DNA from: a bacterium
GTDB lineage: Bacteria > UBA8248
Assembly: GCA_965221165.1 (NCBI GenBank)
Contig: CBDCRP010000003.1
Span: 1,664,001-1,728,000 of the forward strand
Direction: 5' to 3'
Length of the DNA: 64,000 nt
A model generated the notes under the pieces. It was not told the origin of the DNA. It worked only from the letters and a program-made list of their open reading frames with translations, and made no database searches. A program made the position numbers and the translations under genes. Position 1 is the first letter of the stretch, and each line of letters begins with the position of its first letter. Shown piece by piece: positions 35,711-42,452 of the stretch.

Positions 35711-35913
35711 GTGGGACCGCTCATGGGTCGGGGATACAAAAAGCCGGGACGATGCAGCGCTAAAGTAGTTATCGGTAAAATTTCTCCGGCGGGCTGCGGA
35801 TGTCGCCATTTCGCCCGCAATGGGGTTACAATGGATTTTCAAATACCCGATCGCGCGAAGCCCTTGGCGCGGGTATCTTTCTTCGCGCCAAATGCGGAAA
35901 GGCAACCCGAAGC

Positions 35914-36777
35914 ATGTCTTATTCGAAGTTAGTCGAACTCTCGGAGGGAAAGGCTTACGTCCTCCACAACACGTTTCCGCTGGATGGCCGAATCAGCGCT
36001 TATCCCATCAGCGCGCGCGGGCATAGCGTCTCGAACTGCTATCTCTTGAAAGAAGAAACAGGCGCGCTTCTGCTCGATACGGGCTACGCCGTTCACGAAG
36101 CCGAAATCCTGGCGCAGCTCGCATCCGTTCTCGACCCCGAGACGCCGCTGTCGCTCCTTCCGCTTCGCATCAACGAATTCATGTCGGTGGGCAACGCCAT
36201 GGCGATCGCCAAGCGCTTCAACGTGGTGGAATGCCTGGCCCCCGTGCCGAAAATAAACGAGTGGCTCGAGTTCGAAACGATTGATCCGGGCGGCGGGAAC
36301 AACGGCAACCCCACCCTCAACACTACGCTATTGAAACCACTCCACCCCTTTGAAATCGGCGAGAGATACATCGAAGTCATGAACGCGCCGATCCGTCTCA
36401 TCAACACCCGCTGGATTTACGACGAGGCCACGCGCACGCTGTTCTCCTCGGACATGTTCTCCCACATCTGGCAAGAACGCGCCGACGGCCCCTGGATGCT
36501 GGATGAAGACGACGTGACGACAAACGCCTTCGTCCGCTCGTTTTTACTGAACACCCGCTACTGGTGGCTCGAGGGCGCGAGGACGGACGACATCCGAAAA
36601 GGGGTCGCCGAAGTCTTCGAGCGTTATGAAATCGAAACCATCGCTCCGGGATACGGCGTCATCCTGCGCGGACGTCATCTGGTCGAGCGGCAATTCTCCG
36701 TGCTCGACGAGGTTCTGGCGGGCCTAGACCGCACGGTCGTCAAACCAGGATACGTCGCCTTGGGCCTCGAGAGATAG
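35914..36777 (+). CDS. Metallo-beta-lactamase-fold protein (FprA N-domain-like), metal ligands degenerate
   Basis: NCYLL..LLDTG, IYDEATRTLFSSDMF, IAPGYG; LRINEFMS in place of HxExxH. Confidence 0.7.
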   Translation: MSYSKLVELSEGKAYVLHNTFPLDGRISAYPISARGHSVSNCYLLKEETGALLLDTGYAVHEAEILAQLASVLDPETPLSLLPLRINEFMSVGNAMAIAKRFNVVECLAPVPKINEWLEFETIDPGGGNNGNPTLNTTLLKPLHPFEIGERYIEVMNAPIRLINTRWIYDEATRTLFSSDMFSHIWQERADGPWMLDEDDVTTNAFVRSFLLNTRYWWLEGARTDDIRKGVAEVFERYEIETIAPGYGVILRGRHLVERQFSVLDEVLAGLDRTVVKPGYVALGLER

Positions 36778-36786
36778 GATAAATTC

Positions 36787-37548
36787 ATGAGTTATCCGCT
36801 GCCCCGTGAAATATCGACCGGCGTCTTCTGGCTCGGCGACTGCCTCGTACAACACTCCCAGGGGAAAATCTACCACTCCTACAATGCGGCTTTTCTCGTC
36901 ATCGGCTCGGAAGCCTCCATACTCGTGGAGACGGGGCATCCCAAGGATTTTCCCGCCATCGAGGGGCAGATGCGAGACATTCTGGCCAGAGGCGGCGGGC
37001 CGCTCAAGCACCTGTTCCTGACCCATCAGGAAACCCCCCATTCGGGCGGTCTGGGCCGCGTGCTCGACCGATACCCCGACCTCACCATCCACGGGGATAT
37101 GTGCGACTACCACCTGGCGTTCCCCCAACACGCGGATCGCTTCAAGGAAATGCGGGTGGGAGAGGCCATCGACTTGGGGAACACGAGGTTCATGGCCGTG
37201 GAGCCCGTGATCAGGGACTTGAGGAGTTCTCTTTGGGGATTCGAGACCGCCGGGCGGGTGCTCTTTCCCGGAGACGGCTTCGCCTACAGCCACTACCATA
37301 CGGACGGGCATTGCGGCATGTTCGCGGAGGAGGCCACCTCTCTCGACCTGGTCGACGTGCTGGGCGTATTCGCGGAGCGCGCCCTGTTCTGGACCACCTT
37401 CACCGACATGAACATCTATGCCGACAAGCTCGAAGAACTGATGGATAAGCTGAACGTCGGGGTGGTCGCTCCGACCCACGGCCTCCCGATAAGGAACATC
37501 GCGCAAACGATGCCCAAGGTGAGAGAAGGCCTCGTCAGAGACGAGTAA
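36787..37548 (+). CDS. Metallo-beta-lactamase-fold protein (FprA/flavodiiron N-domain-like, stand-alone)
   Basis: YNAAFLV, VETG, THQETPHSGG, LFPGDGF, VAPTHG. Confidence 0.8.
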   Translation: MSYPLPREISTGVFWLGDCLVQHSQGKIYHSYNAAFLVIGSEASILVETGHPKDFPAIEGQMRDILARGGGPLKHLFLTHQETPHSGGLGRVLDRYPDLTIHGDMCDYHLAFPQHADRFKEMRVGEAIDLGNTRFMAVEPVIRDLRSSLWGFETAGRVLFPGDGFAYSHYHTDGHCGMFAEEATSLDLVDVLGVFAERALFWTTFTDMNIYADKLEELMDKLNVGVVAPTHGLPIRNIAQTMPKVREGLVRDE

Positions 37549-37584
37549 GGTTCAGCGCCAAGACTCCAGAATATTCAAACCGGC

Positions 37585-37983
37585 TTAGACGTCCTCCACC
37601 AGTTCCCACAGCGCGCCCATGGTGCTTTTGGGCTGGATGAAGGCGATGAGGTGCCCGCCGAAGCCGGGCCTTGATTTCTCGTCAATCAACTCGAAGCCCC
37701 GCGCCTTCAAATCGGCCAGCACGCCGTCGATGTTCTTCACGTCGAAGGCCACGTGGTGGAGGCCCTCGCCGCGCTCTTCGATGAATTTGGCGAGAGGGGT
37801 GCCTTCCTTGATGGGCGAGATGGGCTCGATGAGGTCGCCGCCCAGATCCAGCATCGCCAGATCGGTCGCGCCGTCGGCCGAAGTCTCCCGCGCGAGCAAT
37901 TTAGCGCCCATGCTTTCATACAGAGCAATGGAGGCGTCCATATCCTTCACCGCGACGCCTATGTGATGAAATTTGTTGAACAT
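37585..37983 (-). CDS. VOC family protein, methylmalonyl-CoA epimerase-like
   Basis: HHIGVAV, FIEERGEGLHHVAF, IAFIQPKS..G.LWEL. Confidence 0.85.
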   Translation of the reverse strand: MFNKFHHIGVAVKDMDASIALYESMGAKLLARETSADGATDLAMLDLGGDLIEPISPIKEGTPLAKFIEERGEGLHHVAFDVKNIDGVLADLKARGFELIDEKSRPGFGGHLIAFIQPKSTMGALWELVEDV

Positions 37984-38205
37984 ATTCGCGTTTCCTCCCG
38001 ATCAGGCGCGGGGACGGGAATTTCCCCCGCCCGCCGCATCGAATGCTCCATGGATTGACGAGACATCTGTTTAGCAGGCTTGCCGGAATTCCACAATCAA
38101 ACCCTTAGTTTTCGGTTCCGGGAAACTATACTTGAGCGCGCGTTTGCCGTATCCTGCACTTATCAGCGGGAATCATACGGACGACATATTCATAAGGAGA
38201 AATTC

Positions 38206-38766
38206 ATGGAAGGCCCGATTGATGGACACGGCACGTCCACGGTTCCGGGTGAGCGCGTCATCGACAAGCCCGAACACCCCGCCGGGGGGCTTTATACGGA
38301 CAACACCGTCCACACCGAGATGCACGAGGGCGCTCTTCAGCTCAAGCGCGGCAGGGCGGGAGATTTCGAGATATTCTGCGACGAGGGCGCCGGGATCGGC
38401 GGCACGGCCCGATACCCCACCCCGATGGCCTATCTCGCGATGGCGACGGGGTTCTGACTGCTCACCCAGGTGTCGCGGTACGCGCACATGATGAAAATGG
38501 AAATCAAGGGGGCGAGCGTCTCGGTCCGGTTCAAAAAGCTGCTGGGCGGCTCCGTTTTGAAGGGAACCGTGTTCAACAAGTGGGAGAGCGTGGACACGCA
38601 CCTGAAAGTCGAATCGGACGAGCCTGCGGACAAGCTCGCGCATCTCATCAAAAACGCCAAGAACGGCTGTTTCGCCGAGGGCTTGATCACCGAGCCGGTG
38701 CCTTTGAACTCCACCGTGGAGGTGAACGGCGAGCCGTTCAGAATCGAAGGGGTAACGGCGGACTGA
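38206..38766 (+). CDS. OsmC/Ohr-like protein with in-frame UGA (predicted Sec) at 38455-38457
   Basis: DEGAGIGG..PTPMAYLAMATGF-U-LLTQVSRYA places U at the first OsmC Cys; second Cys in NGCF; TAAGGAG RBS; ORFs 38080-38457 and 38470-38766 share a frame. Confidence 0.88.
38470..38487 (+). promoter_or_regulatory. Candidate bacterial SECIS hairpin for the OsmC-like gene
   Basis: GTG-T-CGC-GGTAC-GCG-CAC: bulged U, G-starting loop about 19 nt after UGA. Confidence 0.65.
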
Positions 38767-38788
38767 CCCGCCATATATGGAGCCATCA

Positions 38789-39238
38789 ATGGAATACTTC
38801 GACGCGTCGCCCGACATATCATTCGGCTCACAGCCCGAGCCTGCGGATCTCGAATCCCTCGCAGATAGAGGGGTCAGGACCATCATCAACACGCGCTTTC
38901 CCGAGGAAGACCAGGGCGAGTTGCCGCCCGCGCGCGCGAAGGCCGAGGCCGAGGCGCTGGGGATGCGCTACGTGAACATCCCCGTCTCGCCGGTGGAGTT
39001 CAGTCCCGATTCGCTCGCCGAGGTGAGCCGCGCGCTCGATGAGTCCAAGGCCCACGGGCCTACGTTCGTGCACTGAAAGGCCACTGGGCGGGCCGGGATT
39101 TGCTCGCTGAACCATCTGGCGGATGAGAACGCGTGGAGCGCGGGGGAGATGGAGGGGGCCGCCGACGCCACGGGCTTCGACTGGCGCGAAGCGCCGCTGG
39201 CGCCCAAATACCGCGAATTCTTCGCGCAGAGGGGATGA
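38789..39238 (+). CDS. DUF442/phosphatase-fold sulfurtransferase-like protein with in-frame UGA (predicted Sec) at 39074-39076
   Basis: SQP..DL..LA..GVRTIIN.R..EE, LGMRYVNIPV, GPTFVH-U-KATGRA equals the H-C-x4-R active loop; frame stays open 53 codons to TGA 39238. Confidence 0.85.
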
Positions 39239-39319
39239 CCCCCCCTACCCCCCGAAAAGGGCGATTTTGGGCCGATCTGTTTTCTATCTATTTGATTATA
39301 CTTGACTTACCGCCCATTT

Positions 39320-39463
39320 AATTTTCAGATATTTTCGCCTAATTTCGCCTATTTTCAGATATTTTCACTTATTCGCGCCCCCGCTCCGCGCATGACGCTC
39401 CGCTTCACCACCATACACGCCCGCGCCCCGAGGCCGGTGACGGGATTTGCGGCCAAATGCGTG
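39320..39463. repeat. Copy 2 of the dispersed non-coding element with 10-bp phased ATTTTC units
   Basis: ATTTTCAGAT ATTTTCGCCT AATTTCGCCT ATTTTCAGAT ATTTTCACTT, then the same two conserved blocks as 18039-18109. Confidence 0.7.
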
Positions 39464-39544
39464 GTTCAATTCCGAGCGATGAGGGAGGGATTGTTCCGAC
39501 CAATACGAGAGGCATTCCTGAGCGGTCGTGGCTCCCTTCATCTG

Positions 39545-39960
39545 CGCGGGCCGCATGTATGCGGCCCCTACAATCGCCACGCATGCTTTTTCCGTAGGGG
39601 TCGCATATATGCGACCCGACGGCACAATTCCCACCTATAAAGGAAACCCACTCCCCCCTACGGGTCAAACCCGACCGGGGAGGGAGGGGCTGCCGACCGG
39701 GGAGGGGTTGGTTGCGCGTCTTCTGTAGGGGCGGACCTGTGTGTCCGCCCGCCTTCGTCATATCCGCCCCTGCGCCCGCCCTATGGTGGGGTGATGCAAT
39801 GGGCGGACACACAGGTCCGCCCCTACGATCAATCGCGACCGATGAGGTCAATCCCGACCGGGGAGGGAGGGATTGGATTGCTGGCCGAGGAGCGGAGAAT
39901 AGCCTGCGGGTATGATTTCGCCCGTCATACCGGAATGGTCCTATCCGGTATCCAGAGACT
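39545..39960. repeat. REP-like palindrome cluster D (composite, includes REPIN-like inverted pair)
   Basis: GTAGGGGCGGACCTGTGTGTCCGCCC (39725-39750) and its exact reverse complement (39801-39826); GGGCCGCATGTATGCGGCCCCTAC (39548-39571). Confidence 0.85.
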
Positions 39961-40028
39961 TTGCGGACGAGGAAACAACCCCGATCTCAAAGCGATGCTT
40001 TCACGGCATATTCTGAAATAAGGGGGTT

Positions 40029-42452
40029 TCAGGCGTCCTCCCCCCACACCCTTGCGACCGCCGCCTGAATCTTTTTCTCGAAGCGATCGATGAGTTTGCG
40101 GTTGGATTCGACCATGGCCTGCTCGGCTTCTATCTCGGCGACGATGTCCTGTTGGGTTTCAAGGGGTGGAAGGGGAATTAGTATTCTCTCCAAATTTCCT
40201 TTCGTGATGTGGACAAGACCAACACCACCATGAAGATTTTCTTCAACCTCCGCAACTGCTCTATTTAGTACGTAGTGCAAATACATTTTCATTGTCTGAC
40301 TTTGATTGAATTCGATCTTGAAAATGTGCTGGTTCAATATGGCCTTGCCGCCACTCCAAATATGCGCTCCAAAAGAGGTGCCTCGTGAGCCAGACCATGA
40401 GAACAAAAGCTGCCCTCGGCTAATAATGTACTGATCTTTCACTTTCCCAGTGTAATAATTAAACTCACTGCTAGGGGAATTTAGGTTTTGAATTCGTACA
40501 ATCGGGAGGCCACCACTATCGGCACGCTCCCAGTCCTGTGGCTTAAAAGCACGCCCGTTGACAAGGTTGCAAATATCACCAATCGCCACCATCGGCCATT
40601 CAGGATCGACCGCGATATGCGGGCGATAATTGTCGACCACCGCGCGCGCTCCGTCGATGACCTTCTGGTAGCCCTCGATTTCGGCGACGATCTCCTTTTG
40701 AATATCGAGAGGAGGGAGGGGGATTTTGTGCGTTTGGTAAACTTCCGTCCTGTTAAGGCCCGGAATACCCGCACCGCCCCTCAATTCTTGAAGTTTTAGG
40801 CTCTTCAAGACCCAATAGAGATAAACGAGCTCAGATTCACTGGGGTTGGTTTGCCTAACGTAATACGTCGTATCTATAGGAAAGCAATTTTGCTGAATAA
40901 ATGTCACTTCACCTGCCGATCCTTTTCTTCCGACGACAATTGCAGGCCCCTCGATGAGGAAATCGTTATGGTATCCAGTGATACCGTTCGAGCCAACGAC
41001 AGGAAAGGAACCCTCGACACGCTTTGCTTTTGGTAGGCTCGCACCATATTCAAGTGTGCAGACATCTTCAAATTGGCATAACGGAAACTTGGATCTAGCT
41101 TGAGCTGCCTCTCGATACCTCTCCCCACTCAGATTGTACTCCCCGTTCTCCGCAATCTTCTCCTTCTCGACGATCAGCCCGAGCGTCGGCTCGAAATCAT
41201 CCAGTGGTTCCCCCGCCCGCAGCCGCCGCAGGTATTCGATTATCTCCGTCTTAGCTTGAGGCAGGTTGTTCTTATCAATCTCCCGCCGCTGCGCTCCCAG
41301 GTCGTAGCCGTCGTTCTCGACTTTGAAGAAGGCGACGTGGTTCGCCCTCCTCGCCAGCGGCTTATCCAGAATGAGGATGGAGGTCTTGACACCCGAATAG
41401 GGCTGGAACACGCCCGGAGGCAAAGAGACCACGGCGACGAGATATTCTTCCACCAGCATCTTGCGAAGCTGCTTATAAGCGTTCTGGCTCTGGAAGATGA
41501 TTCCCTCGGGCACGATGATGCCCGCGCGGCCCCCCGTCGTCAGGTGCCCGGCCATGTAGTCCACGAAGAGCACCTCGCTGCGCCTGGATTGCACCGAGAA
41601 GCGGTTGTGCGGGCGGATGCCGCCTTTGGGGGACATGAACGGCGGGTTCGCCAGAATAACGTCCGCGAATTCGTTCCAGTTATCTTCGCTCGTGAGCGTG
41701 TCGTACTCGGAAATATGCGGGTCGGTGAACCCGTGCAGGTACATGTTCGCCAGAGAGAGCCGCACCATGTCGGGCGAAATGTCGTAGCCCTTGAGATTGG
41801 CGGCCAGCCGTGTCTTCTCGTCCGGCGTCAGGCTGCTCCCGCCGTTTTCATCCGTGTTGGCCTTTAGAACGTGCTTGTAGGCGGAAATCAGAAAGCCTGC
41901 GGTGCCGCAGGCGGGGTCGAGCAGCCTCTCGTCTTTTTTGGGGTCTACTATCCCGACGATGAAGTCGATGATGTGGCGTGGGGTGCGGAACTGCCCGGCG
42001 TCGCCCTGGGAGCCGAGCACGGAGAGCAGGTACTCGAAGGCGTCGCCCAGCCGTTCCGAGTGATCGTAAGTAAACTCGTCGATAATTTTGAGAAAGGCGC
42101 GCAGGGTTTCGGGGTCTCGGTAGGGCAGATAGGCGTTCTTGAAGATGTCGCGAAACAGCGGCGGAACCCCCGGGTTCTCCGGCATCCGGGTGATGGCCTC
42201 GGCGTAGAGGTTCAGGGTCTCATGGCCGCCCAGGCCCGCGCGGGTCAGCTTCGCCCATCCGTAGCGGGCGAAATCACCGGCGAAAAAGCTGCGCTTCCCG
42301 CCCAACTCCTCGCTTTCGGCGTCGATGTCGTCCATGAACTTGTAGATCAAGGCGATGGTTATCTGCTCGACCTGGCTTTTGGGGTCGGGCACCTTGCCCA
42401 CGAGAATGTCGCGGGCGGTGTCGATGCGGCGTTTTGTGTCGGCGTCGAGCAT
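40029..42452 (-). CDS. Type I R-M fused methyltransferase-specificity subunit (HsdM-HsdS)
   Basis: GQFRTPRH, DPACGTAGFL, ANPPF (N6-MTase); two TRDs each ending IPLPPL..Q..IVAEIE. Confidence 0.92.
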   Translation of the reverse strand: MLDADTKRRIDTARDILVGKVPDPKSQVEQITIALIYKFMDDIDAESEELGGKRSFFAGDFARYGWAKLTRAGLGGHETLNLYAEAITRMPENPGVPPLFRDIFKNAYLPYRDPETLRAFLKIIDEFTYDHSERLGDAFEYLLSVLGSQGDAGQFRTPRHIIDFIVGIVDPKKDERLLDPACGTAGFLISAYKHVLKANTDENGGSSLTPDEKTRLAANLKGYDISPDMVRLSLANMYLHGFTDPHISEYDTLTSEDNWNEFADVILANPPFMSPKGGIRPHNRFSVQSRRSEVLFVDYMAGHLTTGGRAGIIVPEGIIFQSQNAYKQLRKMLVEEYLVAVVSLPPGVFQPYSGVKTSILILDKPLARRANHVAFFKVENDGYDLGAQRREIDKNNLPQAKTEIIEYLRRLRAGEPLDDFEPTLGLIVEKEKIAENGEYNLSGERYREAAQARSKFPLCQFEDVCTLEYGASLPKAKRVEGSFPVVGSNGITGYHNDFLIEGPAIVVGRKGSAGEVTFIQQNCFPIDTTYYVRQTNPSESELVYLYWVLKSLKLQELRGGAGIPGLNRTEVYQTHKIPLPPLDIQKEIVAEIEGYQKVIDGARAVVDNYRPHIAVDPEWPMVAIGDICNLVNGRAFKPQDWERADSGGLPIVRIQNLNSPSSEFNYYTGKVKDQYIISRGQLLFSWSGSRGTSFGAHIWSGGKAILNQHIFKIEFNQSQTMKMYLHYVLNRAVAEVEENLHGGVGLVHITKGNLERILIPLPPLETQQDIVAEIEAEQAMVESNRKLIDRFEKKIQAAVARVWGEDA

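Follow-up and report, generated by a model that had tools for sequence, protein, structure and literature searches.

Two adjacent genes in a 64,000-nucleotide (nt) stretch of contig CBDCRP010000003.1 (hereafter the window, i.e. the whole stretch of DNA that was analysed) are each crossed by an in-frame TGA codon; the first is an OsmC-like gene (gene 1), and the second is of DUF442 type (gene 2). This raises two questions: whether the TGA codons are read as selenocysteine (Sec, U), and whether the two products form a dedicated pair. A sequence-only reading of the locus had described two co-oriented genes, 22 nt apart, with a TGA at each nucleophilic cysteine (Cys) position, and both coordinates and alignments agree with this description. 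Judging from comparison with related sequences, both TGAs are almost certainly Sec codons at nucleophilic Cys positions. Gene 2 appears to define a new family of Sec-for-Cys bacterial selenoproteins, and its pairing with gene 1 adds only a genus-level oddity. For the locus as a whole, we consider it highly probable that the best explanation is two real selenoprotein genes, the first presumably of peroxidase type and the second presumably acting in sulfur or selenium transfer, brought side by side within one genus.

The two TGA codons and the hairpins that follow them

Both genes are read from the + strand of the window, gene 1 at 38206-38766 and gene 2 at 38789-39238. Gene 1 starts at ATG 38206, has its in-frame TGA at 38455-38457 (residue 84) and its stop at 38764-38766; for gene 2, the start is ATG 38789, the TGA lies at 39074-39076 (residue 96 counting from 38789) and the stop at 39236-39238. 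With TGA read as U, products of 186 and 149 amino acids (aa) are obtained, and the spacer is 22 nt, taking 38789 as the start of gene 2. A further ATG, upstream at 38777, overlaps the gene 2 GGAG and would yield 153 aa; it is used neither by homologues nor by gene callers. The features of the locus are the following.

38196..38199, + strand: GGAG ribosome-binding site of gene 1, 6 nt upstream of the ATG, from sequence
38206..38766, + strand: gene 1, OsmC-like selenoprotein, 186 aa, U84, motif U-L-L-T (NF041052, Pfam OsmC; internal TGA in 17/17 related loci)
38455..38457, + strand: predicted Sec codon TGA of gene 1, residue 84 (TGA in 17/17 loci; aligns with the Cys of CVMTQ in PDB 3CJE)
38470..38487, + strand: SECIS-like hairpin of gene 1 (3 bp, bulged U38473, 4 bp, loop GUA)
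38668..38670, + strand: codon of Cys155 of gene 1, second conserved Cys of the OsmC family and candidate resolving Cys (GCF Cys of 3CJE; 17/17 loci)
38779..38782, + strand: GGAG ribosome-binding site of gene 2, within the 22-nt spacer, 6 nt before the ATG
38789..39238, + strand: gene 2, predicted DUF442-type phosphatase-fold selenoprotein, 149 aa, U96, P-loop H-U-K-A-T-G-R (PF04273, AlphaFold2, PDB fold matches)
39074..39076, + strand: predicted Sec codon TGA of gene 2, residue 96 (TGA in 17/17 loci; aligned with HC elsewhere)
39087..39108, + strand: SECIS-like hairpin of gene 2 (7-bp stem, 39087-39093 with 39102-39108; 8-nt loop CGGGAUUU at 39094-39101)
39101..39103, + strand: codon of Cys105 of gene 2, nine residues past the Sec (near-invariant in the Sec clade, absent from an ordinary DUF442 protein)

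Gene 1 belongs to the known OsmC-like UxxT selenoprotein family and, taken alone, is ordinary. It scores 164.2 bits against the NCBIfam model NF041052 (OsmC_like_Se; cut-off 95), or 155.9 bits by genome search, and 47.4 bits against Pfam OsmC. Its motif U84-L-L-T87 is the UxxT of OsmC-like selenoproteins, its second conserved Cys is C155, and in the alignment these residues fall on the Cys pair of 3CJE, an OsmC-like structure (CVMTQ and GCF). The first conserved Cys of OsmC and Ohr, to which U84 corresponds, is presumably the peroxidatic residue. The protein most likely acts as a hydroperoxide reductase-type enzyme, through a cycle in which Sec84 would be oxidized to a selenenic acid and Cys155 would resolve it via a Se-S bond. 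In the accessible parts of the literature, UxxT has been listed for OsmC-like selenoproteins since the 2005 Sargasso Sea metagenome study (PMC1088965, PMC2398784; Table 1 of PMC13188914), which, together with the NF041052 score, agrees with the remark of the sequence-only reading that such selenoproteins had been reported. With the OsmC_like_Se family gene 1 shares a score over the cut-off, the U-L-L-T, the second Cys and a SECIS-like hairpin directly past the TGA, and it differs in nothing essential; unlike its paralogues, it uses a bulged-U register in this hairpin.

Conservation of the codons was followed in 17 related loci (the genomes of 16 other species, and the window). At both internal sites TGA is invariant (17/17 for each gene), whereas the terminal stop varies between TGA, TAA and TAG in gene 1, and between TGA, TAG and TAA in gene 2. 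The reading frame of gene 1 stays conserved beyond its TGA, with Cys155 invariant in 17/17 loci. Past the TGA of gene 2, 53-59 residues are conserved, and similarity collapses beyond the stop. Cys aligns with the Sec position in 3CJE for gene 1 and, for gene 2, in a Cys form of the protein (P0036) and in 63/63 distant loci from other phyla. The sequence-only reading, which had asked for the U/C status of homologues, would have been in difficulty if these ended at the TGA or lacked Cys there; instead, the homologous DNA continues and the Cys is present.

Both TGAs are followed by a hairpin. According to section 5 of PMC13188914, bacterial selenocysteine insertion sequences (SECIS) have a loop of 3-9 nt with a G in its first two positions, lie 16-37 nt from the UGA and have an energy of at most -7.5 kcal/mol; both hairpins fall within all four constraints. 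The bulged-U hairpin with a G-starting loop, claimed for gene 1 from sequence, is indeed present at 38470-38487 (GUG-U-CGCG / GUA / CGCG-CAC, -8.1 kcal/mol), its loop beginning 20 nt past the TGA. The hairpin of gene 2 has a 7-bp stem, loop CGGGAUUU and an energy of -10.5 kcal/mol, and its loop begins 17 nt past the TGA. By analogy with known bacterial Sec insertion, SelB bound to the hairpin just downstream of each UGA would deliver Sec-tRNA, so that UGA would be decoded as Sec.

Four observations speak against this decoding. Folding energies of the 61 nt past each TGA are no better than those of shuffled sequences (z of -0.78 for gene 1 and +0.66 for gene 2; energies over 61 nt were also computed, as controls, at the two real stop codons), the gene 1 hairpin not being the minimum-energy fold of its 61-nt stretch. 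The stem of gene 2 has no two-sided change among 28 distinct sequences, only G-U to A-U (11/28 and 1/28) and G-C to G-U (1/28). An Rfam scan of 37500-40000, with E up to 10, found no SECIS family and returned chance-level eukaryotic families only. Finally, the genome is a metagenome-type assembly with an estimated contamination of 8.47%.

With energies no better than those of shuffles, the case for the hairpins rests on the comparison with relatives. The 18 nt of the gene 1 hairpin are identical in 17/17 loci, third codon positions included, and flanking third positions vary; synonymous variation affects 2 of 10 codons in the hairpin versus 121 of 165 elsewhere. For gene 2, the figures are 2 of 9 codons versus 99 of 134. 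This suppression of synonymous change right after the two TGAs has p = 0.001 and 0.003, for windows picked after seeing the data. Among 17 distinct hairpins of OsmC_like_Se paralogues, one stem pair is CG in 14, AU in 2 and GC in 1, and the covariation score of the stem was reached by 0/500 shuffles; in the register of the paralogues, two outer pairs are scored as unpaired, because the clade of the window uses the bulged one. For gene 2, the core GCGRGC-CGGGRUYU-GCUCGC is kept in the 28 distinct sequences, the most distant of which have about 40% protein identity, and 196/196 cells of the stem are paired, versus 32-56% in slid controls. Here the support comes from invariance rather than covariation, because no pair changes on both sides.

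The genome is of Nitrospinota type and has the full selenocysteine machinery: tRNA-Sec scores 75.9 bits (cut-off 47), and selA (564 bits), selB (384 bits) and selD (330 bits) are all over curated cut-offs. The selD gene (C2:975065-976027, - strand) itself holds one in-frame TGA, and selenophosphate synthetase is therefore itself a selenoprotein in this genome. The accessible text of the BSepDB paper places metagenome-assembled genomes labelled Nitrospinota, Nitrospinaceae or Nitrospinae (filed under UBA8248) among those with the richest selenoproteomes, 48-54 genes.

It could be argued that one or both TGAs are true stops, and the genes decayed fragments or short open reading frame (ORF) pairs. 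This would fit the unexceptional hairpin energies and the behaviour of gene callers: among 66 relatives of gene 2 in protein databases, 58 are exactly 95 aa long, the distance from ATG 38789 to the TGA. It fits neither the invariance of the TGAs where true stops vary, nor the purifying selection that persists past each TGA to the real stop. A separate downstream ORF would moreover lack a start codon (the ORF ending at 38766 begins with GTG 38470, inside the hairpin), gene 2 is modelled as a single domain across its TGA, the genome has full Sec machinery, and gene 1 matches a curated selenoprotein model, NF041052. Reading the TGAs as stops is contradicted by the comparative data, and we give it a negligible chance. 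The 58 short calls rather confirm what had been suspected from the sequence, namely that standard annotation fragments these genes: public calls stop at 95 aa, and the active site is therefore lost from annotation.

Family, fold and predicted chemistry of gene 2

In the preferred reading, gene 2 would encode a stand-alone DUF442 (PF04273) phosphatase-fold protein with Sec in place of the P-loop Cys. It matches PF04273 (BLH_phosphatase, formerly DUF442) over residues 11-106 with 52.1 bits, for a cut-off of 26.1. Against NF040641 (Blh bifunctional sulfur transferase/dioxygenase) it scores 51.4 bits versus 625, over profile positions 5-130 of 423 only, and nothing of the Blh dioxygenase half is present. 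An AlphaFold2 model built with 25 sequences gives one compact domain spanning the TGA (predicted local distance difference test, pLDDT, 95.4; predicted template-modelling score, pTM, 0.91), with U96 placed between strand 92-95 and helix 100-114. The top fold matches of this model in the PDB are the DUF442 entries 3GXG, 3GXH and 2F46 (template-modelling scores of 0.71-0.78), ahead of dual-specificity phosphatases. These proteins, from Shewanella (3GXG, 3GXH) and Neisseria (2F46, NMA1982), match over about 146-149 columns but are only 19-20% identical to gene 2, and are Cys enzymes.

The Sec residue falls where related proteins have their Cys. In 63/63 distant loci from other phyla, H-C stands at the U96 position, followed by the C-x4-R spacing in 10 and C-x5-R in 53; the gene 2 loop, U-K-A-T-G-R, is a U-x4-R of the DUF442 type and does not have the classic phosphatase signature H-C-x5-R. 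Much closer is P0036, a Cys form of 162 aa that shares 49% identity with gene 2 across 97% of the length and has Cys at the U96 site, followed by the same GRAG-V-CS. Within the phylum, 36/51 genomes have the gene 2 family, with 59 matches: 56 contain exactly one TGA and 1 contains two. The 2 matches that contain none are a 44-residue piece at a contig end, which stops short of the site, and a distant ordinary Cys DUF442. A second-copy DUF442 gene at G024:C5:285655-286089 has two TGAs within its match and an early end (131 aa), which might mean that this copy is decaying. A maximum-likelihood tree was built from 45 rows (midpoint root, long outgroup branches): 41 belong to the Sec clade, with P0036 as its sole Cys form, and a long branch with support 99/98 separates them from the other 4, which are Cys DUF442 outgroups.

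A further residue, Cys105, lies nine residues past the Sec. It is near-invariant in the alignment of the Sec clade, and an ordinary DUF442 protein lacks it. As its codon lies within the 3' arm of the hairpin, constraint on the RNA and on the protein are not separable here; its retention in the Cys form P0036 would argue mildly for a role in the protein. Speculatively, Cys105 might be a second redox partner or resolving residue.

What would such a protein do? Most likely, it would carry sulfane sulfur, or selenium, on its Sec as a Se-S or Se-Se intermediate, and would pass it on to a thiol acceptor in a rhodanese-like manner. We infer this because sulfur transfer was measured for related domains: in the accessible text of PMC5823870 and PMC9163753, the DUF442 domains of Blh and of Cupriavidus pinatubonensis have thiosulfate:cyanide sulfur-transferase activity, which the C94S substitution abolishes in the C. 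pinatubonensis domain. With these enzymes (the N-terminal domain of Blh in Xylella and Agrobacterium; the SQR-fused DUF442 of C. pinatubonensis) gene 2 shares the phosphatase fold, the C/U-x4-R loop and a nucleophile near residue 95; it differs by having Sec for Cys, and neither a dioxygenase nor an SQR domain. A likeness of chemistry, rather than of fold, is probable with the rhodanese-like selenoproteins, of which the accessible part of PMC13188914 has five forms (PF00581 and others): they too have Sec in place of a sulfur-carrying Cys, but on the rhodanese fold, unrelated to the phosphatase fold, and gene 2 has no PF00581 match.

Two results call for caution with this assignment. Gene 2 is under the cut-off of TIGR01244 (50.7 versus 85.85 bits), and a sequence search of the PDB with gene 2 gave 0 matches at E 0.01 or better. 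For these reasons we call it a divergent branch, whose activity may differ from that of Blh-type domains.

It might, in particular, be an enzyme of phosphatase or arsenate-reductase type, working through a seleno-phospho or seleno-arsenate intermediate, and no sulfur transferase. Protein tyrosine and dual-specificity phosphatases have this fold, weak matches to several Pfam phosphatase families are seen, and the structures closest in fold were deposited as 'putative phosphatase'; arsenate reductase selenoproteins are also known, of another fold, from the accessible part of PMC13188914. Yet the U-x4-R of gene 2 is that of the 10 DUF442-type distant loci and not the C-x5-R of the 53 classic ones, its best Pfam and NCBIfam matches are sulfur-transferase families, and the DUF442 domains that have been assayed are rhodanese-like. 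We therefore regard a phosphatase or arsenate reductase as quite unlikely and retain sulfur or selenium transfer as the predicted role.

The family seems not to have been described. No PF04273, TIGR01244, DUF442 or phosphatase-fold entry is present in Table 1 of PMC13188914, which in May 2026 catalogued 119 families of prokaryotic selenoproteins; no model of NCBIfam release 20 is specific to the gene 2 family; and a literature search, whose reach did not extend to supplementary family lists (BSepDB, source papers of reviews), returned no paper linking DUF442 to selenocysteine. The family would thus bring a fold unrepresented among the 119 catalogued ones, in a selenoprotein-rich lineage. It also exposes a systematic annotation error, public calls keeping only its first 95 residues, and its very sharply conserved SECIS motif, GCGRGC-CGGGRUYU-GCUCGC, could help to detect further members. 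A phosphatase-fold sulfur transferase in which nature has put Sec for Cys would, in addition, offer a ready system for asking what benefit selenium brings to persulfide chemistry.

Gene neighbourhood and the pairing of the two genes

Do the two selenoproteins belong together? The genus of the window was covered by its own genome and 22 others, which gave 22 examinable loci, the 23rd genome contributing a contig-end fragment only. An OsmC-like Sec gene lies directly upstream of the DUF442-Sec gene in 21/22 loci. In 17 of these 21 the spacer is 21-25 nt with the GGAG kept, and in the other 4 it measures 71, 73, 205 and 697 nt. The locus without this neighbour belongs to a genome whose closest OsmC_like_Se gene lies about 7 kb off. 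Upstream of the pair, two genes of the metallo-beta-lactamase (MBL) fold and a VOC gene are syntenic across the genus (15/16 loci for at least MBL2 and VOC). Adjacency is thus no independent evidence of coupling, because these genomes share the upstream gene order too.

Outside this arrangement the picture is different. Most genomes of the genus have a second DUF442-Sec copy, and we examined 18 loci made up of other genera and second copies: no OsmC gene was found within 1.5-2.5 kb in any of them, and in 17 of the 18 the DUF442-Sec gene is preceded, on the same strand, by a transglutaminase-like gene (PF13369, weakly SirB1-like) and lies beside ilvD. In the genome of the window, the second DUF442-type gene (C3:689741-690187, - strand) shares 43% identity with gene 2 and has a single in-frame TGA; 24 nt upstream of it is a transglutaminase-like gene, and its neighbours also include ilvD and a thiamine pyrophosphate enzyme. 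In the maximum-likelihood tree, the copies next to OsmC-like genes make up a shallow, derived group surrounded by copies from the transglutaminase/ilvD setting, which suggests that the latter is the older one for the family. The most economical reading would be that a copy of the DUF442-Sec gene landed, by relocation or duplication, behind one OsmC-like gene in the ancestor of the genus.

Adjacency across independent lineages was therefore not found (21/22 loci in one genus, 0/18 elsewhere), and it is a genus-level arrangement. The sequence-only reading had proposed a coupled Sec/Sec module; of this proposal the adjacency within the genus stands, but the coupling, given the 0/18 and the upstream synteny, is weakly supported. 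The conservation of the pairing, on which that reading had staked the module, fails outside the genus, where the transglutaminase-like context prevails.

The two genes of the window are probably transcribed together. Contigs from RNA libraries of relatives (two studies, 88-95% alike) cover both TGAs and the spacer, which shows their presence in RNA libraries only; cover is missing over 38100-38263 and 39248-39300, where the contigs are uninformative. Co-transcription is weakened by the origin of these contigs, which come from relatives and cannot show one transcript, DNA carry-over being possible. A scan of 37500-39700 found no promoter-like site, and no terminator after gene 2.

One could still propose a dedicated Sec/Sec redox relay, in which, for instance, the DUF442-Sec protein recycles or loads its OsmC-like partner, or the two proteins successively handle a peroxide or persulfide substrate. 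The co-orientation with a short spacer and conserved GGAG in 17/21 loci, the adjacency in 21/22 and the RNA contigs of relatives that bridge the spacer are what it would predict, and the accessible part of a review has selenoprotein genes in one operon often acting in one pathway. The same genomes, however, share the upstream MBL-MBL-VOC genes, so that a pairing confined to one genus may just reflect relatedness; four of 21 spacers are long (71 to 697 nt) and one genome keeps its OsmC_like_Se gene about 7 kb away; 17/18 loci outside the arrangement put the gene after a transglutaminase-like one; and OsmC_like_Se is multi-copy in this lineage, with up to 16 matches per related genome, most without a DUF442 neighbour. 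We find a dedicated relay unlikely, and keep to two selenoproteins that are neighbours in one genus. In multi-selenoprotein operons described in the accessible literature (Prx with SelW-like, Prx-like with AhpD-like, Tso, SAO), two co-oriented redox-type selenoprotein genes also lie a few nt apart; the pair studied here differs in that it occurs in a single genus and is conserved in neither family as a whole.

A link between a peroxidase-type fold and the DUF442 fold, which would favour a relay, comes from two public proteins, P0064 and P0065. In these gene calls the C-terminal two-thirds of AhpC/TSA are joined to DUF442, starting at positions 47 and 45 of the 124 of the Pfam AhpC-TSA profile, just after what we take to be the expected peroxidatic residue of the peroxiredoxin. 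They may be peroxiredoxin(Sec)-DUF442 fusions with N-termini cut off at a TGA. A metagenome scan with P0064 did not retrieve the DNA of the fusion among 22 loci; the 21/21 that were read are stand-alone Cys DUF442 genes, mostly with a hydrophobic, signal-like N-terminus.

In its boldest form, the DUF442-Sec protein would be the first natural phosphatase-fold selenoenzyme, a carrier of selenium or sulfane sulfur recruited in this genus as partner of an OsmC-type selenoperoxidase, the two being joined in a Sec-to-Sec relay (Se-Se/Se-S exchange) with Cys105 and Cys155 as resolving residues. We hold this full scheme to be very doubtful; if true, such a relay would give Nitrospinota-like bacteria, rich in selenoproteins, one means of coping with peroxide and persulfide stress.

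Other genes and repeats around the pair and its paralogues

Upstream of the pair in the window, the genes of metallo-beta-lactamase fold (35800-36777 and 36787-37548) adjoin and have weak ODP/flavodiiron-like matches. The VOC-family gene (37585-37983, - strand) scores 111.4 bits, just under the methylmalonyl-CoA epimerase cut-off of 114.95.

Downstream, gene 2 is followed by a non-coding stretch (39238-40029) that contains five overlapping copies of an A/T-rich unit with 10-nt spacing (39321-39389), a direct repeat of 22-26 nt that occurs three to four times (39464-39875) and a perfect 26-nt inverted repeat (39725-39750 with 39801-39826). Next comes an 807-aa ORF on the minus strand (40029-42452), which reads like a type I restriction-modification methylase/specificity fusion. 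As this ORF was not found downstream of the pair in the 16 related loci, synteny ends at gene 2.

In the genome of the window, three OsmC_like_Se genes over the cut-off, gene 1 included, have one TGA each, and a fourth, weaker match (48.7 bits, below the cut-off) also has a TGA. Besides gene 1, the OsmC-family genes of this genome lie at C3:1092999-1093427, C2:1176698-1177093 and C2:870616-871011, each with one in-frame TGA; two of them exceed the NF041052 cut-off and the third is a more distant relative. With up to 16 matches per related genome, OsmC-like selenoproteins have expanded in this lineage. About 190 nt downstream of another OsmC-like Sec gene (L150:1501-1896, on C2) we noted a 403-aa protein of the PurM superfamily (L150:2084-3292), whose matches to HypE (107 bits) and SelD (89.5 bits) stay under the threshold, and which could be a selenium- or sulfur-activating partner of that OsmC-like selenoprotein.

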